A stretch of 64,000 nucleotides of DNA from positions 32,001-96,000 of IMG/VR virus record IMGVR_UViG_3300031578_000005, one strand, 5' to 3'. Positions within the stretch are counted from its first letter, which is position 1, and each line of letters begins with the position of its first letter. Shown in pieces: positions 4,110-46,205 of the stretch. The position numbers and the translations under genes are program-made. The stretch comes from a virus. The notes under the pieces were generated by a model. The model had not been told where the DNA came from, searched no databases, and worked only from the letters and a program-made list of their open reading frames with translations.

Positions 4110-4155
4110 ATTAAATAGTTTTAAGTTAATACGTTAATATCTATGTTAATGTTAC

Positions 4156-14785: not shown

Positions 14786-15922
14786 ATGAAACTAATCAGG
14801 TCAACTAAATGTAGTCTGAAGTTCGCTACTGCGAAGAAAAAGAATGATTTACTAACTATCTTGAGTGAATACTCAAAGGTGGTTAATATCTTCATTGACT
14901 ATTTCTGGTTGAATTCTGATAAAGCAACAAAAGGAGAACTTCTTAAACCCGTTGTGGATTTACCACAAGACTCATGGTTGTCGGCTCGACTGAGAAAAGT
15001 TGCAGCAAGAGAAGCAATCGACATGATTAATGCCAGTAAGCAACGATGGAAAGAGAAAGCCGTTAAGCCATTACACAAAGGTCAGAGGATGTATGTTAGT
15101 TGTACCATTGCTGACCTTGTATCAACCAAAAACAATGGTTATAAAACCGAAGACAGCAGACTTTTTGATGCTTGGTTACACATAGCCAGTGTTGGTAATA
15201 AGATGATAATGGACTTGCCGATAAAATACCATAAGCACTTCAACAAATACAATAACATTGGTAGGAGACTGAATTCATATATCATTACCAAGAACTATGT
15301 GCAATTCAGTTTCGAGATAATTACCGAGACAAAGAAGGAAGGTAAACATTGTATCGGTATTGATACAGGTATAAACGCATTGGCAAGTCTTAATAATGGT
15401 AATCAGTATGGTAAGGACATCAAAGGTTGTATCGAGAGAGTTAAAAGATGCAAGCAGAAGTCCAATGGTTATTATGTAGCCAAGAGAGCATTGAAACAAA
15501 GGATTGATGAAACAGCAAAGGAAATATTAGTTAAAGAAACCCCAGATTTAATTGTTGTAGAGCAACTAAAGAAAATGGGATTTAAAAGTAAAGCCAAACG
15601 CTTGTTGGCTAAAAATATCAGGCGTTCTATCGGAACTTGGAATTGGAAGTATTGGTTGAAAAGGTTAGAAGCACAATGCGAGATTAACCGTGTTAGTTTT
15701 CGCAGTGTAGCACCTTATTACACCAGTACAACCTGTCCAATATGTGGTCATTCCGATAGGGGAAATCGACTCGGAGAAGTGTTCTTGTGTCTCAGTTGTG
15801 GTCACGGAGACAATGCAGATATAAATGCGGGTAAGAACATTTTGAATCGATTTCTCACGGGACAATACGGTGCTCGTTACAAGGAAATAAAGGATGTGCA
15901 AGTTTGTGCAGATTTATTTTAA
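14786..15922 (+). CDS. tnpB: TnpB RNA-guided nuclease
   Basis: RuvC GIDTG, VVEQL, NADINA; Zn finger CPICG...CLSCG. Confidence 0.92.
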   Translation: MKLIRSTKCSLKFATAKKKNDLLTILSEYSKVVNIFIDYFWLNSDKATKGELLKPVVDLPQDSWLSARLRKVAAREAIDMINASKQRWKEKAVKPLHKGQRMYVSCTIADLVSTKNNGYKTEDSRLFDAWLHIASVGNKMIMDLPIKYHKHFNKYNNIGRRLNSYIITKNYVQFSFEIITETKKEGKHCIGIDTGINALASLNNGNQYGKDIKGCIERVKRCKQKSNGYYVAKRALKQRIDETAKEILVKETPDLIVVEQLKKMGFKSKAKRLLAKNIRRSIGTWNWKYWLKRLEAQCEINRVSFRSVAPYYTSTTCPICGHSDRGNRLGEVFLCLSCGHGDNADINAGKNILNRFLTGQYGARYKEIKDVQVCADLF

Positions 15923-16927: not shown

Positions 16928-17264
16928 TTTTAAATAAATACTGTTTATCTAATATAAATTTATGTTTTTTAATAAATTTTTTGTGATAATATTAATGCAT
17001 AGAGTATTTATTGGTATAGAATCATCGCTTAATATTGACATTAAGCTAAGTCTGAAAAAAGTCAGGAATGATTTTAAAAATTTATCGCCCGACAGTGGTT
17101 ATGTAAATTTTTAATACTTGACAAAAATGCATCAATACCAATGGTGCATTTTTTATGTGCAATTGGTATTTATATTAAAAATTAATTAATGTCCAAAAAC
17201 AATAAAAATAGATTATTGGAAATAATGAAGCTAGTTAATCCTTCATTTATTACCGAAGATTTTA

Positions 17265-17468
17265 ATGACAAGCCATTACCAACGAGCTGTGAAAAATTCA
17301 TCAGCAGTACAATACTCAAATTCACGTATAGATACTCCAGTTGAGTTCGAAGACGCATTTAAAGTATGGTTTAGCTCAACGGGTTTTCATCCAGAAAAAA
17401 GTAATTTAACCATATCACAAGCACAGGTATTTGTAAAAAAAGTCATGCAAGAATTGGGATATAAATAA
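17265..17468 (+). CDS. hypothetical protein
   Basis: 67 aa ORF. Confidence 0.45.
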   Translation: MTSHYQRAVKNSSAVQYSNSRIDTPVEFEDAFKVWFSSTGFHPEKSNLTISQAQVFVKKVMQELGYK

Positions 17469-17483
17469 TTATTTTAAAAATTA

Positions 17484-17527
17484 TTTGCAGTTATTGTAAC
17501 ATTTACTATCTTTGCTACGTATTTATA
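17484..17527 (+). promoter_or_regulatory. composite promoter of tRNA cluster 1
   Basis: TTTG-N19-TATCTTTG nested with TGTAAC-N17-CGTA and GTATTTATA. Confidence 0.75.
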
Positions 17528-17745
17528 AAAAGGAGTATAAATTCCATCCATTGTTTTTACGTGAATGGAATGTAAGCGGCAAATGCTAATCCTGATTGAG
17601 AATATACTAAAGTAAGGAATAATCATATTGTCGGGTTCAGGGATTGAATCCTACATTAAGCAAAAACGGGATGAGGCGTTGCCATTAGGTGAGTCTATGA
17701 CCCCCGAAGCCCAACCCGTCAGTTTTGCTGTGGGTGGTAGTTCAC
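17527..17745 (+). mobile_element. IS200/IS605-derived MITE (omega-RNA-like right end)
   Basis: ends GAAGCCCAACCC...GGGTGGTAGTTCAC; left part resembles 45357-45440. Confidence 0.7.
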
Positions 17746-17797
17746 AAAATGCAAGCCTATTATTTAGGCAGTTAATTAAATTGAAGAATTAGAAATT

Positions 17798-17872
17798 ATG
17801 AAAAATTTTACACATACTCAGCCCCAACCGCAACAACATCCACAAGAAGTTGAATGGGGAAAATATGTTTAA
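17798..17872 (+). CDS. leader peptide 1 MKNFTHTQPQPQQHPQEVEWGKYV
   Basis: 10 of codons 6-16 are Pro/Gln/His; GAATGGGG pairs with terminator 5' arm. Confidence 0.85.
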   Translation: MKNFTHTQPQPQQHPQEVEWGKYV

Positions 17873-17901
17873 AAATTTTAAGAATATTTTAAAATGAACA
17901 T

Positions 17902-17931
17902 AGACCCCATTCGAAAGAGTGGGGTTTTTTT
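17902..17931 (+). terminator. attenuator terminator 1
   Basis: ACCCCATTC-GAAA-GAGTGGGGT followed by T-run. Confidence 0.85.
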
Positions 17932-17984
17932 GTAACAAAAAATTTGATATTACGTATAGTTGTTCTTTGAAATATAATTTAAAA

Positions 17985-18058
17985 CTGGGAGTGGGAAAAT
18001 TGGTTAATCCGCTTGCCTTGGACGCAAGAGACTGCTGAATCGTACTCAGCCTCCCAGA
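17985..18058 (+). tRNA. tRNA-Pro(TGG)
   Basis: cloverleaf; CTTGC-ctTGGac-GCAAG; atypical T loop. Confidence 0.8.
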
Positions 18059-18067
18059 CAATTTTAT

Positions 18068-18156
18068 CGAGTAGTAGCTCTGTAGCTGGTAGCAGTCCCG
18101 TCTTGGAAACGGGTGGAATATAAAATCCCTCGCAGGTTCGAACCCTGCCTATTCGA
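18068..18156 (+). tRNA. tRNA-Pro(TGG), long variable region
   Basis: CCCGT-ctTGGaa-ACGGG; GGTTCGAACCC. Confidence 0.8.
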
Positions 18157-18214
18157 CTGGTAGTCAAAGAGTTATATTGATTTCTACTTTGACTGTAAAA
18201 AAATCCATATATAT

Positions 18215-18289
18215 GGTGGTATTAGTGTAGTGGTTAGCACGATACTCTGTGAAAGTATTAGCACCAGTTCAAATCTGGTATATCACCCC
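18215..18289 (+). tRNA. tRNA-His(GTG)
   Basis: ATACT-ctGTGaa-AGTAT; GTTCAAATC. Confidence 0.85.
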
Positions 18290-18295
18290 AAATAT

Positions 18296-18369
18296 TACTC
18301 TCTGGTGTAATTGGTTAACATTTTGGAATTTGACTCCAAAGATTGTAGGTTCAAGTCCTACGAGAGTAA
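18296..18369 (+). tRNA. tRNA-Gln(TTG)
   Basis: TTGGA-atTTGac-TCCAA; GGTTCAAGTCC. Confidence 0.85.
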
Positions 18370-18375
18370 CAATAT

Positions 18376-18458
18376 TGTCCTCTGGCAGAATGGCTATTGC
18401 ATCGCCCTTTGAAGGCGACACCCGAAACGGTTTACAGGTTCGAATCCTGTGAGGACTA
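18376..18458 (+). tRNA. tRNA-Gln(TTG) with long variable arm
   Basis: TCGCC-ctTTGaa-GGCGA; CCG-AAA-CGG variable stem. Confidence 0.75.
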
Positions 18459-18466
18459 CACTATAT

Positions 18467-18537
18467 TACCAAATGGTGTAATGGTAACACCCAATCCTCT
18501 GAAGGTTGTGTTCTTGGTTCGAATCCAAGTTTGGTTA
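18467..18537 (+). tRNA. tRNA-Gln(CTG)
   Basis: CAATC-ctCTGaa-GGTTG; GGTTCGAATCC. Confidence 0.85.
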
Positions 18538-18628
18538 CTAAGATAGTTGAATCAATTATTATGAATGCATAAGAATTATTAATGGGCTTAGAACTTGGAA
18601 TTAAATATTAATTCATTATATTTGCAAA

Positions 18629-18856
18629 ATGGAAGCAGAAGAATTAATAAAAAAAATAAAGAAGTTTGTCGAAGAACTTGATAATAACTTCGAATCAATA
18701 CTTATTCCAACTAAGTATGATCCTAATGATATACAGTATGATGTTTCTTTTATTATGATGGAGAAAGTCGAAGATGATAGAAGTACGCCAAGATTCATTG
18801 TAAATGTAACTGATTTAAATAAAGATGATAATGTCAAAACTAAGAGTGGGAAATAA
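18629..18856 (+). CDS. hypothetical protein
   Basis: 75 aa; TATATTTG promoter element just upstream. Confidence 0.6.
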   Translation: MEAEELIKKIKKFVEELDNNFESILIPTKYDPNDIQYDVSFIMMEKVEDDRSTPRFIVNVTDLNKDDNVKTKSGK

Positions 18857-18980
18857 AGAAAACGCTAAAATAAATGGTGAATGGGGCGACCATGTAAGAA
18901 AATGGGGCAAATTTTTCACAGCTAAATTACGTAGAAATATTGATAAACAAATAATTAAAAAAGAGTACGATGAATTATAA
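18831..18980 (+). CDS. small basic hypothetical protein (MSKLRVGNKE...)
   Basis: 49 aa ORF overlapping both neighbours; not in the ORF track. Confidence 0.5.
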   Translation: MSKLRVGNKENAKINGEWGDHVRKWGKFFTAKLRRNIDKQIIKKEYDEL

Positions 18981-19377
18981 TTTATTCTTAGATGATATAA
19001 GAGTTCCTAGAAATGTATACTCATATATACATAATCCCATATACGCTATGGATGAGTGGATAATTGTTCGAAACTATGATGATTTTGTAAAATACATTGA
19101 AAAAAATGGTATGCCCGAAAAAATTTCTTTTGATCATGATTTATCAGCAGAACATTATGACCCGGACTTATATGGTAGTGAAACATATGATGAAGTATAT
19201 GATCAATTTGAAGAAAAAACCGGATATGATTGTGCTAAATGGCTCATTAATTACTGTATTGAAAATAAATTAGATTTGCCCAATGAAATCCTAATTCACT
19301 CGATGAATATTACCGGTGGGTTGAACATCAAATCATTATTTGATACTTACAATAAATCATTAAAAGTAAATTCGTGA
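18970..19377 (+). CDS. cyclic-phosphate-processing receiver-like domain protein
   Basis: LFLDDIR...VRNYDDF...ISFDHDL...TGYD...IHSMN pattern. Confidence 0.7.
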   Translation: MNYNLFLDDIRVPRNVYSYIHNPIYAMDEWIIVRNYDDFVKYIEKNGMPEKISFDHDLSAEHYDPDLYGSETYDEVYDQFEEKTGYDCAKWLINYCIENKLDLPNEILIHSMNITGGLNIKSLFDTYNKSLKVNS

Positions 19378-19488
19378 TTTGCAAATTGCAAATTATTATG
19401 TGTTGAGATTATAAGTACTAAAATTTATTACTAGAACATATTAATAATCAACAACATATAAATTAAACTAAAAATAATTTAAAAAAAG

Positions 19489-19530
19489 TTTGCAGATATT
19501 GTAACATTTACTAACTTTGTTGCGTATTTA
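19489..19530 (+). promoter_or_regulatory. composite promoter of tRNA cluster 2
   Basis: TTTG-N19-TAACTTTG + TGTAAC-N17-CGTA + GTATTTA. Confidence 0.78.
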
Positions 19531-19576
19531 GATAAAACGAATTAAGAATTTTTGAATAATTAAATAAATAATACAA

Positions 19577-19666
19577 ATGAAAAATTTACTCGACATATTG
19601 ATGGTAGTCTTAGCAGTTGACCTATTATGGGCAGATGCAGAGGATAAACTATGTTTAGTCGGGTAA
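19577..19666 (+). CDS. leader peptide 2 MKNLLDILMVVLAVDLLWADAEDKLCLVG
   Basis: 23 of 26 codons after MKN are L/V/D/A/E/W/G/M; GTCGGGT pairs with terminator 5' arm. Confidence 0.85.
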   Translation: MKNLLDILMVVLAVDLLWADAEDKLCLVG

Positions 19667-19693
19667 TGAAAAATTACACTCCTTTCTTAATTG

Positions 19694-19727
19694 AAAAACC
19701 CGACAACTAAAAATGGTCGGGTTTTTT
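19694..19727 (+). terminator. attenuator terminator 2
   Basis: AAAAACCCGAC...GTCGGGTTTTTT. Confidence 0.85.
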
Positions 19728-19807
19728 GTTTTTATAGAAAGGATGTTCTTTGACATGTTGGAAATTTAAAAATAATTGGAGTGGGTTTGTAATCCACTCC
19801 TAAATAA

Positions 19808-21178: not shown

Positions 21179-21262
21179 GCTCTTATGGTGCAACTGGAGT
21201 GAGACACAGCAGTCTTAGAAACTGTTTCTTAAATGGTGTGGGTTCGAGTCCCACTAAGAGCA
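21179..21262 (+). tRNA. tRNA-Leu(TAG)
   Basis: GCAGT-ctTAGaa-ACTGT; GGTTCGAGTCC. Confidence 0.85.
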
Positions 21263-21975
21263 CAATTTACTTCTAACTTATTATTGATTACATTAATAAC
21301 AATATTTAAATATTTTATTGAGGTTTGTTCTTTGAAATACTTTTGTTGGGAGACATCGATTATACATAATTCAATTCCTTGTTCTAAACAGGCTTGAAAC
21401 TTACGTTGGTCATTATTTTGGATTTGACCTAATTTATCTTCACCAAATATTGGTTCGTAATGGAAAATACCATTAAGTTCAAATGCTAATTTAAGTGAGG
21501 GAATGTAAATATCTAATTCTGAATTGATGGTTGTTTTATTATTGAATAATATTTCTAAATTTCGGTATTGTTTGGTTAATTCAGTTTCAAGATATTGCTC
21601 AAGTTTCGACCTACGATTACCATTTGTTTTGTGTTTATTATTATATGTGGCAGCACATGAACGTGAACAAAAGTGATTGGTAGATTTTTTTTTATCTGAT
21701 AATTGAATCGTAATATTGTTGCCACAATTAGTACATTGAATTATTTCTTTTTTACCTTGTGACGATTGATAACAATTTAATGAACAATATTTACCACTAA
21801 ATTTAGCACTTTTACATGGGATTTGTTTTATTTTACGTTTTGTTAAATAAAAAATATTTGCACAGCCATAACATTTGCATGGTAATTTATCTAATGATTT
21901 TGATGTTAAAAACTCTTGTTCTGTATATAATTTAATCATATAATGATGTTTATAATAAATACTTATAATATTCAT
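21229..21975 (-). CDS. Zn-finger + PD-(D/E)XK/Vsr-like free-standing endonuclease
   Basis: CxxC...YCSxxC, FCSRSC; ELDIYIP..AFELNGIFHY...DQRK. Confidence 0.75.
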   Translation of the reverse strand: MNIISIYYKHHYMIKLYTEQEFLTSKSLDKLPCKCYGCANIFYLTKRKIKQIPCKSAKFSGKYCSLNCYQSSQGKKEIIQCTNCGNNITIQLSDKKKSTNHFCSRSCAATYNNKHKTNGNRRSKLEQYLETELTKQYRNLEILFNNKTTINSELDIYIPSLKLAFELNGIFHYEPIFGEDKLGQIQNNDQRKFQACLEQGIELCIIDVSQQKYFKEQTSIKYLNIVINVINNKLEVNCALSGTRTHTI

Positions 21976-24413: not shown

Positions 24414-24776
24414 GGGGGTGACCGGATTTGACAGCATGTTAGACTGGTAATGTAAGCAGGTAGTAGTTGAATCAGGCTACTTTAAAAAGGTTCAAAGTTA
24501 TAAACGCAAACAATTCCGAGGACATTATGTCCATTCCGACTTCACACTTAATTGTGGGAAGAAGTGCATTTGCAGAGAAAACTGAACTCGCATTTGCTGC
24601 ATAGGAAATAACTAATACAGTTAAGAACTCCTGAGTTGAAAGGATAAATTTAATACAGTTTCATGTTTGAACTGGTAGAATCAATCAATACTTTGTCGGT
24701 TTAGAGAAATCGAATAAACCTGTAGAAAACGTATTAATCACATGTGTGGACGTGGGTTCGAATCCCACTACCTCCA
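24414..24776 (+). ncRNA. ssrA: tmRNA
   Basis: GGGGGTGACCGGATTTGAC 5' end, tRNA-like 3' end GGTTCGAATCCCACTACCTCCA; tag ORF 24506-24604 ending AFAA*. Confidence 0.92.
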
Positions 24777-24796
24777 CTTAAGTAATTATAAATAAG

Positions 24797-30503: not shown

Positions 30504-30545
30504 TGTAACATTTATTAGTTTATTACGTATTTATGATTAACTTTG
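30504..30545 (+). promoter_or_regulatory. composite promoter of tRNA cluster 3
   Basis: TGTAAC-N16-CGTATTTAT followed by TAACTTTG. Confidence 0.7.
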
Positions 30546-30565
30546 TAGAATTAAAATTTGAAATA

Positions 30566-30667
30566 ATGAAAAAAGGTAACACATATTATAAAAAGTATTA
30601 TTATAAACATTATGTTTGTAAGACTGGCAATACTGTGTTGTTATCTGAAAAGGAAACTGATAATTAA
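30566..30667 (+). CDS. leader peptide 3 MKKGNTYYKKYYYKHYVCKTGNTVLLSEKETDN
   Basis: 9 of codons 7-16 are Lys/Tyr; TAAGACTGG pairs with CCGGTCTTA. Confidence 0.85.
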   Translation: MKKGNTYYKKYYYKHYVCKTGNTVLLSEKETDN

Positions 30668-30684
30668 AGATAAACGATACTAAC

Positions 30685-30723
30685 AAAAAACCCGGTCTTA
30701 ATTTAATAAGACCGGGTTTTTTT
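30685..30723 (+). terminator. attenuator terminator 3
   Basis: AAAAAACCCGGTCTTA...TAAGACCGGGTTTTTTT. Confidence 0.88.
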
Positions 30724-30743
30724 ATGCTTATTTTCATTGTAAT

Positions 30744-30824
30744 TGGGTGGTAGGTAAGTGGTTAAAACGGATTGACTGTAAATCAATTGCTTCGGCTTCG
30801 GGGGTTCGAATCCCTCCCGCCCAA
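30744..30824 (+). tRNA. tRNA-Tyr(GTA)
   Basis: ATTGA-ctGTAaa-TCAAT; variable arm; GGTTCGAATCC. Confidence 0.88.
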
Positions 30825-39945: not shown

Positions 39946-39987
39946 TTTGCAGATATTGTAACATTTACTAACTTTGTTACGTATTTA
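39946..39987 (+). promoter_or_regulatory. composite promoter of tRNA cluster 4
   Basis: near-identical to 19489-19530. Confidence 0.78.
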
Positions 39988-40019
39988 GATGAAACGAATT
40001 AAGAAAATTGAATAATTTT

Positions 40020-40145
40020 ATGAAAACATTAACGATAAATATAAACATTTCTACATCGACATCAAGTCGCATTGGAGACTCTATATTCTGTTCAAATTTT
40101 AATGGCAGAATTGGAAACATTTTATCGGGTTTTAGTTTTTATTAA
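40020..40145 (+). CDS. leader peptide 4 MKTLTININISTSTSSRIGDSIFCSNFNGRIGNILSGFSFY
   Basis: 35 of 39 codons after MK are T/I/N/S/R/G/F/C; TCGGGTTTT pairs with AAAACCCGA. Confidence 0.85.
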   Translation: MKTLTININISTSTSSRIGDSIFCSNFNGRIGNILSGFSFY

Positions 40146-40168
40146 ATATAAAAGCACTAAATAAATTC

Positions 40169-40200
40169 AAAACCCGAATTCAAAAGATTCGGGTTTTTTT
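40169..40200 (+). terminator. attenuator terminator 4
   Basis: AAAACCCGAAT...ATTCGGGTTTTTTT. Confidence 0.88.
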
Positions 40201-40341
40201 GTGATTATAATTTAAATGTGAATTGAAAAATTCACAAAGTTCATTGACATACTGGTTTTTGGTAATCAAATAAAACTACCTGCTCGTGGTGATTACCGCA
40301 CAATTAATTAATATTAATTGACTAAATGTTTTATGTTATAT

Positions 40342-40430
40342 ATCGGAATGCTTGAGTGGTTTAAAAGCGTGGTCTGCAAAACCAATGGTAATCAATGAAT
40401 TACACGTGAGTTCGAATCTCATTTCCGATT
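40342..40430 (+). tRNA. tRNA-Cys(GCA), long variable arm
   Basis: TGGT-ctGCAaa-ACCA; U discriminator. Confidence 0.8.
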
Positions 40431-40475
40431 CAAAGTTAATTTAAGTTTAAACTATTTATGTAAAATGTTATTAAC

Positions 40476-41676: not shown

Positions 41677-41769
41677 GGTAGAGTACTCAAATTGGTAAAG
41701 AGGTTTGTCCTGAAAACAAATAGGTCGTGTGATGAGCATGATGCGTGGGTTCGAACCCCACTTCTACCT
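41677..41769 (+). tRNA. tRNA-Ser(TGA)
   Basis: TTTGT-ccTGAaa-ACAAA; long variable arm. Confidence 0.85.
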
Positions 41770-42034
41770 CAAACAATTTAACCTGCAAGTTATTTTGTTT
41801 CTCATACAATACTATAAACAAGTTGTTATTGCAGTAATGAATTGATGTAAAGTATGTGTAAATTTTGGGTTGCATAAGAGGCTTTATTTTAATGTTCTGT
41901 GGATTGTTGTATTATACCCGTGGTTGGCAACTCGGAAAATAAGAAAACATTTGAGAGACATTATTATACTTGTAAAATGGTATTGAATAAGTGAGTAGGA
42001 GGCTCACCCCAAAATTTTTAATTTATTATTAAAT

Positions 42035-42224: not shown

Positions 42225-43454
42225 ATGCAATTAGTTGAACAACATATTATCAATCGTAATCATATATTCTATAATGAATGTGATTCGTTATGTTTTAAAA
42301 CTAAAAATCTATATAATTCATGTTTATATGTCATACGTCAGGCATATATCAATGATAAGGTTAATTTATTATATGATTTACACTCATTAATGAAAGATAC
42401 TGAACAGTATAAAGAACTACCCGCTAAAGTGTCTTCCACAGTGTTGTTAATGATTCAAAAGAATTTCAAATCTTATTTCAAATCAAATGCAGAATTTTAT
42501 AAAAATTCATCTAAATTTAAAGATAGACCTAAATTACCCAATTATTTGGATAAAATAAATGGTAGATATTTTGCTTCATATACAAATCAAGCCATATCAA
42601 AAAAAGTGTTTAATAAATCACATAAAATATTATTATCTAAAACCAACATCGAGTTAACAACCAAAATAGTTGATTTTAATATCATCGATTGTGTTAGAAT
42701 TGTACCGAGATTAGACCACTATGTTATTGAAATAGTATATACCATTCCAGATAAACCTAAATTACCTAACAATAATAAATATTTATCTATTGATTTTGGT
42801 GTTAATAATTTAGCAACAATAACGTCAAATGTTAAAGATGTTAAACCTATTATTATTAATGGTAGACCATTAAAATCAATTAATCAATATTATAACAAAA
42901 AACTGGCACACTATAAATCTAAATTAGAATTGATTAATAAAAAGAAACATAGCAATAGGACAAGGAAATTGACTAACAAAAGAAAAAATAAAGTTGATTA
43001 TTATTTACATAAAGCAAGTAAGACAATTGTTAGTTTAACAAAAAACAATAATATTAACACCATAATAATAGGTAAGAACGATAATTGGAAACAAGGTATC
43101 AACATGACAAAGGCTAATAATCAAAACTTTGTTAATATACCACATAGTAGATTTATAGATATGATTATTTATAAATGCGAAATAGAAGGAATCAATGTTA
43201 TACTACAAGAAGAAAGTTACACAAGTAAAGCATCTTTTTTAAACTTAGATAATATACCTATTTATGGTGATAATCAAAAAAAGCATTTCAGTGGTTATCG
43301 TTATAACAGGGGTTTATATAAAATAAGAGGAAGAAAAGAATTTATTAATGCAGATGTGAATGGTAGTTATAACATATTAAGAAAAGCAATCCCAAAAGCA
43401 TTTGCTGATGGGATAGAGGGTATAGGAGTATATCCAATTAAACTTATGATTTAA
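42225..43454 (+). CDS. tnpB: solo TnpB (IS200/IS605, IS1341-like)
   Basis: SIDFGVNN, LHKAS, QEESYTSK, INADVNG; no Zn-finger Cys; no tnpA adjacent. Confidence 0.88.
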   Translation: MQLVEQHIINRNHIFYNECDSLCFKTKNLYNSCLYVIRQAYINDKVNLLYDLHSLMKDTEQYKELPAKVSSTVLLMIQKNFKSYFKSNAEFYKNSSKFKDRPKLPNYLDKINGRYFASYTNQAISKKVFNKSHKILLSKTNIELTTKIVDFNIIDCVRIVPRLDHYVIEIVYTIPDKPKLPNNNKYLSIDFGVNNLATITSNVKDVKPIIINGRPLKSINQYYNKKLAHYKSKLELINKKKHSNRTRKLTNKRKNKVDYYLHKASKTIVSLTKNNNINTIIIGKNDNWKQGINMTKANNQNFVNIPHSRFIDMIIYKCEIEGINVILQEESYTSKASFLNLDNIPIYGDNQKKHFSGYRYNRGLYKIRGRKEFINADVNGSYNILRKAIPKAFADGIEGIGVYPIKLMI

Positions 43455-45349: not shown

Positions 45350-45356
45350 TATTTAT

Positions 45357-45659
45357 AAACAGGAGAGTAAAACCAATTCATCGCTTTAGCGTGGATGGGA
45401 TGTAAGCGACAAACGTAAGTTTAACCCTGATTTACAGTATTTTACAGAAAAATTAAAAAACTTTAAAGTGAAAGCAACTTTTTGTATATTTATACGTATT
45501 TAATAATATATGCTAAAGTCATTTAAATATTAAGAACTTTGCGTTAAGAAATAATGTATCTGGGACGGATACTAAAACTCGGAACGAACTGCCTACATTA
45601 GTAGGAGTGTTGACTTCCGAAGTCCAACCCATCAGTTTTGCTGTGGGTGGGTAGTTCAC
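45357..45659 (+). mobile_element. internally deleted IS200/IS605 element (MITE)
   Basis: tnpB-like start MLKSFKY joined to a tnpB-like end; right end GGGTAGTTCAC. Confidence 0.72.
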
Positions 45660-45695
45660 AAGTAAATAACATTATTAATTATACAAACATGAAAA

Positions 45696-45959: not shown

Positions 45960-46109
45960 TTGTCAGTAATAAGACATTAAAACCTCGTTAGGGACTAACG
46001 AGTACACGAGTGGAGTAAAAGTAAGACTTCTAGCTCTTCAGAGCAGTAAGCAAATTGCTGTGAAACTCGAACCCCAATCCATCAGCTTTGCTGTAGGTGG
46101 GTGGTTCAC
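45960..46109 (+). mobile_element. omega-RNA-like right-end element (copy D)
   Basis: near-identical to 20943-21089. Confidence 0.7.
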
Positions 46110-46131
46110 AAAAATTGTTATATGAGAAAAC

Positions 46132-46205
46132 GTTCGGTTAGCATAATTGAATAATGCACGGCATTTCTAACGCTGCGACTACAGGTTTGAATCCTGTACC
46201 GAACA
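46132..46205 (+). tRNA. tRNA-Arg(TCT)
   Basis: ttTCTaa loop; GTTCGGT/ACCGAAC acceptor. Confidence 0.75.

Follow-up and report, generated by a model that had tools for sequence, protein, structure and literature searches.

A short leader ORF precedes six tRNA genes

The window studied here is a stretch of 64,000 nucleotides, bases 32001-96000 of a single 128,513-bp viral contig with 29.3% G+C (IMG/VR record IMGVR_UViG_3300031578_000005). At 17985-18538 it carries six tRNA genes in series, Pro(tgg), Pro(tgg), His(gtg), Gln(ttg), Gln(ttg), and Gln(ctg), preceded by a short open reading frame (ORF) and an intrinsic terminator. This ensemble, termed unit A, and the three sister units described below lie on the plus strand; positions are those of the window. 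The ORF, leader A (MKNFTHTQPQPQQHPQEVEWGKYV; 17798-17872), comprises 24 presumably translated codons and a stop, and ten of the eleven codons at 17813-17845 encode Pro, Gln, or His. Codons 6-16 read H T Q P Q P Q Q H P Q, with Thr as the sole exception, CAA used four times and CAG once. A six-frame scan of the whole genome found an 11-residue window with ten Pro/Gln/His only at leader A; the sole other place that reaches eight of eleven contains stop codons.

The likely start of the leader transcript is promoter motif P1 (TGTAAC-N17-CGTAT; 17495-17522). Region 1 (CCCCAAC; 17822-17828) is predicted to pair, when no ribosome is present, with region 2 (GAAUGGGG; 17852-17859), the putative antiterminator strand in the last third of the ORF. 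Both the minimum free energy (MFE) and the centroid folds predict a weak, A/U-rich spacer hairpin (17875-17895) separating the stop codon from the terminator. The terminator (17902-17933) comprises region 3 (CCCCAUUC; 17905-17912), a GAAA loop, region 4 (GAGUGGGG; 17917-17924), and a U-run; in a terminator scan its hairpin (17902-17927) has 11 pairs followed by a T-run, at -18.3 kcal/mol. A second promoter motif, P2 (17931-17957), lies 3' of the terminator and is a possible attenuator-independent route into the tRNA genes, and a conserved motif, GTTCTTTGAAATA (17962-17974), separates the terminator and P2 from the first tRNA. An original prediction, made from the sequence of this window alone, had described the locus as a transcription attenuator. 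The elements it named are all present: the Pro/Gln/His run with both CAA and CAG, the tRNA order with TTG and CTG anticodons, and the pairing letters of CCCCAAC, region 2, and the terminator arm, the latter two located exactly as GAATGGGG (17852-17859) and CCCCATTC (17905-17912).

Leader A is predicted to fold as a ribosome-dependent switch

The segment 17780-17940 folds with an energy z-score of -4.66, and none of 200 shuffles folds that stably. Within the 100 nt preceding terminator A, the best partner of its 5' arm is UGAAUGGGGA (17851-17860; -13.4 kcal/mol, shuffle p = 0.002). In the ribosome-free MFE fold, CCCCA (17822-17826) pairs with UGGGG and the terminator forms. The sequence thus allows the 1:2/2:3/3:4 switch that had been proposed, in which region 2 pairs either with CCCCA or with the 5' arm of the terminator. 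The original prediction also suggested folding the leader under ribosome occlusion, and we did so with a mask of 30 nt moved codon by codon. Under the mask, codons 5-13 were the only A-site positions at which the MFE fold contained the GAAUGGGG/CCCCAUUC antiterminator; with the A site anywhere from codon 14 to the stop, or with no ribosome, the terminator formed. When the RNA was cut just 3' of region 3, 2:3 pairing formed at codons 1-14 and was lost beyond. In the model, therefore, the sensitive window coincides with the Pro/Gln/His run.

Unit A is conserved among uncultured viruses

A blastn search of 17300-19400 against cultured and deposited phages returned three short tRNA-level matches and no relatives. 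Relatives were found with a back-translated pattern for PQPQQHPQ, which matched 41 viral stretches; 30 have a short ORF of the leader A kind, and in the other 11 the ORFs are unrelated. In 29 of the 30, tRNA-Pro lies 73-833 nt after the leader stop, with His and/or Gln tRNA genes behind it in most; the remaining contig ends 75 nt after the stop. Since this pattern presupposes the peptide, the search was repeated with an anchor drawn from the RNA only, a strict two-gap pattern of region 2 and the two terminator arms. It matched 35 viral stretches, and in all 35 an ORF of at most 45 residues with a Pro/Gln/His run lies over region 2, giving 25 distinct peptides. The best count of Pro/Gln/His in nine residues is nine in 18 loci, eight in 13, seven in two, and six in two. 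tRNA-Pro is among the first two downstream tRNAs in 34 of the 35 loci, the exception ending 9 nt after the terminator. Ten of the anchored loci fall outside PQPQQHPQ (e.g. QPQHQPQ, HQPQQHPH, PQPQQHPP, and QPQQHPQ); these variants mostly permute or replace residues within P, Q, and H, and their length changes are in frame. A loose pattern of regions 2 and 3 gave chance matches, with one true new locus among the matches listed. Contigs of cellular genomes, searched with the exact pattern only, gave two matches, both filed under metagenome-assembled bacterial genomes; the element did not turn up in ordinary cellular genomes.

One of these relatives, a viral contig of 365 kb, keeps the gene order: a leader (MKNLIHIHPQPQQHPQMLNGDNMA) with its own terminator, then Pro, Pro, Pro, His, Gln, and Gln tRNA genes. 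An ORF of the HNH type is inserted between terminator A and tRNA-Pro in this genome (L003:4689-5327; L numbers denote relatives' loci). Across 23 aligned A-type sequences the leader ATG is invariant, and pairing is possible in 97.8% of cells for 2:3, 97.0% for 3:4, and 97.4% for 1:2. Region 2 keeps its letters in L003/L040 and L013 despite frameshifts, located beyond the codon run, that change or end the frame over it, and the 'EWG' of the leader peptide thus reflects a constraint on the RNA. L185 is the only A-type locus whose operon begins with tRNA-Arg(acg), and a CGC codon stands directly before its codon run (L185:2285-2356, 2440-2513). It is one isolated case of possible co-evolution between leader and operon; Arg also occurs elsewhere in other leaders.

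Conservation of regions 1-4 as RNA, together with the low z-score, is what would be expected of an RNA-only switch or a small RNA, binding for instance a tRNA or a protein directly, in which the reading frame is incidental and the C/A-rich run could be mere unstructured spacer. Against this stand the invariant ATG, a run length that varies in multiples of three, replacements that stay mostly within P, Q, and H, and the existence of four leader types that differ in sequence and each encode the amino acids of their own operon (below). Nor does any Rfam family match at its gathering score, and we judge this explanation improbable.

Three sister units share the build of unit A

Three further units in the window share their build with A, and not its sequence. 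Attenuator B (19500-19730) comprises a promoter (19500-19527), an ORF (MKNLLDILMVVLAVDLLWADAEDKLCLVG; 19577-19666), region 2 (19657-19665), and a terminator (19693-19730), followed by tRNAs for Asp, Glu, Glu, Val, Leu, Ala, Leu, Leu, and Trp. In attenuator G (30504-30725), a promoter (30504-30530), an ORF (MKKGNTYYKKYYYKHYVCKTGNTVLLSEKETDN; 30566-30667) with region 2 at 30618-30628, and a terminator (30685-30725) precede tRNAs for Tyr, Lys, and Lys; tRNA-Tyr starts at 30744, 24 nt after the terminator by the measure used for relatives. Attenuator H (39957-40201) has its promoter at 39957-39984, its ORF (MKTLTININISTSTSSRIGDSIFCSNFNGRIGNILSGFSFY) at 40020-40145, region 2 at 40124-40131, and its terminator at 40169-40201, and the tRNAs behind it are Cys, Asn, Ile, Ser, Phe, Gly, Ile, Gln, Thr, three Arg, and Ser. 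A search for H-type relatives through the 202-residue protein encoded between tRNA-Cys and tRNA-Asn found none; they were obtained by a DNA search within the records behind the earlier loci.

Among B-type sequences, pairing reaches 85.8% for 2:3, 85.5% for 3:4, and 94.8% for 1:2, against 15-54% in slid controls, and there are three covarying pairs in 3:4. A further helix may enclose the B-type terminator: UCCUUUCU (19680-19687) can pair with AGAAAGGA (19736-19743), past the U-run, and three relatives carry ACACAC/GUGUGU at this place (alignment A3: L025, L030, L043, L174). This looks like covariation, and the helix, perhaps formed only once the polymerase has read through, may serve as a processing stem.

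Each leader matches the tRNAs of its own operon

To compare leaders with operons, all tRNA genes between one leader and the next were counted as one operon, with 58 long ORFs supplying the background composition. Residues of the own set make up 10 of 23 in leader A (p = 1.9e-6), 21 of 28 in B (p = 2.7e-6), 13 of 32 in G (p = 3.5e-4), and 35 of 40 in H (p = 1.4e-7). All 12 off-diagonal combinations of leader and operon give p >= 0.68; enrichment is confined in every leader to the amino acids served by the tRNAs behind it.

The 365-kb relative, which is complete, is an independent replicate of all four units. Its 54-kb tRNA region contains 47 tRNA and tmRNA genes, and four leaders precede, in turn, Pro/His/Gln; Asp/Glu/Val/Leu/Ala/Trp; Tyr/Lys; and Cys/Asn/Ile/Ser/Phe/Gly/Thr/Arg. 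The diagonal of its leader-operon matrix reads 1.1e-6, 1.4e-5, 0.051, and 9.7e-8, with off-diagonal values of at least 0.30. A 2:3 partner is found for only the four leader units among its 12 terminator units (p <= 0.04), the rest giving p >= 0.37.

Antiterminator partners are specific to leader terminators

In the window, all four leader terminators have a strong upstream partner of their 5' arm (A, 0.002; B, 0.000; G, 0.008; H, 0.012), which in B, G, and H lies within the terminal part of the unit's own leader ORF, and five gene-end terminators have none (p = 0.21-0.94). A rule-based survey then covered the window and all the relatives' loci collected by that stage. All 50 leader-type rows give p <= 0.06. 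Thirteen other terminators behind short ORFs give p = 0.135-0.89 and 23 behind long ORFs p = 0.07-0.975, so that no control terminator reaches p <= 0.05. An internal negative control is provided by a small conserved ORF ending in ...SGYV(K/N)F, which has its own terminator and lies just 5' of leader A (16962-17114) as well as 5' of leader A in many relatives (e.g. L017:423-470, L021, and L030). The terminator of this ORF has no antiterminator partner in eight rows (p = 0.135-0.69).

Region 2 varies between and within leader types, each version matching its own terminator. H-type pairs among the relatives include GUGUCGGG/CCCGACAC, GAUACGGGUUC/GAACCCGUAUC, and UUCGGG/CCCGAA; G-type pairs are GAAUCGGG/CCCGAUUC in two relatives and UAAGACUGG/CCGGUCUUA in the window. 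Such variation between and within families takes the place of the covariation that A lacks.

These results bear on two further explanations. The terminator could act constitutively close to the promoter, for insulation or for a fixed low level of read-through, with a codon bias that arose by chance; the strength of the hairpin and the presence of P2 right behind it in this genome would suit such a role. The codon run is nevertheless unique in the genome and kept with its tRNAs in 34 of 35 loci, and the antiterminator partner is specific to leader terminators, all of which makes this the least credible of the explanations considered. Alternatively, the short ORFs could be genes for small functional peptides with their own promoter and terminator, the tRNAs being transcribed separately and their adjacency reflecting conserved gene order. 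Features outside the cognate residues are indeed conserved (the MKN start, EWG, and LDIL...LLWA in type B), type B looks hydrophobic, and a second promoter lies 3' of the terminator in 5 of 23 A-type loci. Yet the non-cognate residues that are conserved lie over regions 1 and 2 of the RNA, where nucleotides are kept across frame changes, and in many relatives the first tRNA, tRNA-Pro in A-type loci, starts 7-30 nt behind the terminator, which leaves no room there for a separate promoter. A Pfam and PHROGs search of the four leader peptides returned nothing below E = 0.09. Four unrelated peptides each match their own downstream tRNA set and no other, and every leader terminator has an upstream competitor for its 5' arm, as no control does at p <= 0.05. 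Small functional peptides are thus a poor explanation, if a marginally better one than an RNA-only element.

A shared promoter motif, an inserted repeat, and a motif behind the terminators

The motif TGTAAC-N16/17-CGTAT occurs 14 times in the window against 0.14 expected, roughly a 100-fold over-representation, and 0 of 100 shuffles reach 14; further sites lie, for example, at 4129 onward, 23611, 27021, 30335, 50848, and 62174. Its two blocks resemble promoters of ECF-type sigma factors. The promoters of leaders A, B (19500), and H (39957) share a longer, near-identical cassette that includes the 5' untranslated region (UTR). P2 had been raised from the outset as a possible bypass of the terminator; the motif is indeed there, and it recurs in relatives.

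Between P1 and leader A lies an inserted repeated element of ~240 nt (~17525-17765), which places the leader ATG 276 nt from P1 compared with 54-67 nt in relatives; in the 16 of 44 leader rows with the strict motif, the distance ranges over 31-78 nt. The original prediction had noted an insertion here and called it a MITE. The insertion stands, and the label does not: pieces of the element recur at three other places (45361-45413, 45611-45661, and 46068-46113), and a search of 17525-17765 found no terminal inverted repeats, its inverted repeats being internal only, so the MITE identity was rejected. The repeat spans ~240-300 nt, is G+C-richer, and has a fold z-score of only -1.83. Its copy at 45350-45660 carries an internal insertion and lies shortly 5' of the tRNA-Arg cluster, and the 3' piece (46060-46113) ends 19 nt before the tRNA-Arg at 46132. 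No copies were found in the relatives' loci, where the element is no part of the attenuator.

The motif between terminator A and the first tRNA also occurs behind terminators B (19745-19757) and H (40239-40251), and as GTTCTTTGA(C/A)AT in L185:2413-2425 and many relatives (alignments A1, A3, and A4). It resembles, as a candidate, the boxA of rRNA antitermination; literature searches on the motif together with 'boxA' returned nothing usable. If it is a boxA, it would make the polymerase processive through the untranslated tRNA array.

Genome setting

ARAGORN identifies 31 tRNA genes and a tmRNA (24414-24777) in the window, and an Rfam scan of 15000-50000 adds three tRNA-like genes, one of them tRNA-Met; the genome carries ~35 tRNA genes plus the tmRNA. 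Several tRNA genes, including those for Pro, Gln, Cys, and Thr, are unusually long (84-94 nt against a normal ~75), for example at 18068-18157, 40342-40431, and 41677-41770. The window also encodes a T4-type large terminase, ribonucleotide reductase, RNA ligase, and two TnpB-like proteins (14786-15922 and 42225-43454); mobile genes interrupt the tRNA operons, and a minus-strand ORF of 248 residues (21229-21975) is inserted inside the tRNA operon region. Upstream regions of 86 long ORFs are A-rich, G-poor (G <= 14% at each of 22 positions), and lack a Shine-Dalgarno signal, so leaders that lack one are in line with the rest of this phage. In the 365-kb relative, one tRNA has the anticodon CUA and is labelled 'Pyl' by ARAGORN (G001:C1:148036, locus L188), a hint of read-through or reassignment of amber codons in that genome.

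A model for attenuation of the tRNA operons

The analysis supports the attenuator interpretation of the original prediction, and unit A is likely to be a translation-sensing, leader-peptide transcription attenuator of a phage tRNA operon. In the model that would connect the elements, their complementarity, their conservation, and the match between leader and operon, leader translation, stalling, and read-through would proceed as follows. Transcription would begin at P1, and a ribosome would start on the 24-codon leader. When charged tRNA-Pro, -Gln, and -His are plentiful, the ribosome would reach the stop codon (17870-17872) and cover region 2; 3:4 would then pair, and RNA polymerase would terminate at the U-run (17927-17933). 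When any of the three charged tRNAs is scarce, the ribosome would stall in the codon run and cover region 1, leaving region 2 free to pair with region 3, so that no terminator forms and the polymerase reads into the Pro-Pro-His-Gln-Gln-Gln genes. With no ribosome on the leader, 1:2 and 3:4 would form and transcription would stop. The outcome would be negative feedback on the supply of exactly those tRNAs that the operon makes. Units B, G, and H would do likewise for the rest of the tRNA array, each leader listing the amino acids of its own operon.

Several observations weigh against this interpretation. The evidence for all units is computational throughout, comprising sequence comparison and folding models, and a look-up of sequencing runs listed no RNA run that contains this stretch. 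Attenuation of this kind presumes that transcription and translation are coupled in the host, and the best database matches of the terminase, among them Flavobacterium, Microcystis, and other phages, are at 25-26% identity too weak for a host to be named. In unit A, the inserted element lengthens the 5' UTR to ~270 nt. Of 23 A-type loci, 5, this window included, have P2 at this position 3' of the terminator, and part of the tRNA transcription may thereby bypass the terminator and escape the attenuator. All three helices are invariant in the 23 A-type sequences, so there is no compensatory change, and no covariation, within that family; in type B, 2:3 shows a single covarying pair. The MFE fold of the full-length B, G, and H leaders is the terminator at every ribosome position, and a switch in these units would have to be kinetic, as in the truncated-RNA model. 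In the G type, 17-36 nt separate the end of region 2 from the stop, so that masking by a terminating ribosome fails to explain termination, and a hairpin re-forming behind the ribosome must be assumed. In the 365-kb relative, enrichment across the full length of the G leader is marginal (8 of 28, p = 0.051). Finally, the limits of the B and H operons were set after the data had been seen, and they include inserted genes and other promoter motifs.

Relation to known attenuators

Classical leader-peptide attenuators are the trp, his, phe, thr, leu, and ilv leaders of enterobacterial operons for amino-acid biosynthesis. Like unit A, they combine a short ORF rich in regulatory codons, a terminator before the regulated genes, and mutually exclusive 1:2/2:3/3:4 pairings, with a stop codon placed so that the terminating ribosome covers region 2. 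Unit A shows the features of this structural class: a short leader ORF, a cluster of cognate codons, a terminator, an antiterminator, and, in the model, a 1:2 helix overlapping the codons. It differs in being encoded by a phage and in that the regulated genes are tRNA genes and not genes for enzymes, which makes the sensed molecule itself the product. Moreover, where a classical leader names one or two amino acids, leaders B and H name six to eight. Searches with the Rfam leader families and the T-box gave no match at the gathering score, the only hits in 15000-50000 being tRNA and tmRNA; the best sub-threshold match was unrelated (E = 0.058; 26.8 bits against a threshold of 44.2), and the units share no sequence similarity with those leader families.

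Two other systems follow a related logic. The pheST attenuator of E. coli, with its pheM leader, likewise uses a leader peptide to control a component of translation that serves the codons of the leader; unlike the phage units, it governs a protein-coding synthetase operon in a cellular genome and responds to a single amino acid. The T-box, too, chooses between terminator and antiterminator so that a gene for translation supply is expressed more strongly when the cognate tRNA pool falls short. It binds uncharged tRNA directly, without translation, whereas the units described here have a translated-looking ORF, address several amino acids per element, and give no Rfam T-box match. The motif behind the terminators is placed much like the Nus-factor boxA or the lambda nut site: it is short and lies just past the point where the choice would be made, ahead of long, untranslated, structured RNA genes, where a signal for processivity would be of use. 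A full-text literature search, with subscription journals and supplements outside its reach, found no leader-peptide attenuation before tRNA genes in cells or phages. Within that literature, we rate the mechanism as known, and the regulated gene class, the feedback logic, the multi-amino-acid leaders, and the viral setting as new.

Implications for phage tRNA arrays

On balance, we lean towards a broader view in which the whole tRNA complement is divided among four regulons that sense demand, with a 'list' leader gating each one (P/Q/H; D/E/V/L/A/W; Y/K; and C/N/I/S/F/G/T/R). The virus would then gauge decoding capacity for each codon class and transcribe only those tRNA sets that are short, for example after loss or cleavage of host tRNAs, and this design would be common to a wide group of large uncultured phages. 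If true, the virus regulates tRNA supply directly, which bears on why and when phages use tRNA arrays. A leader peptide naming six to eight amino acids would represent a new principle of design. The leaders as a group mark operon boundaries in the genomes of uncultured phages, and could serve as compact sensors for chosen tRNA pools.

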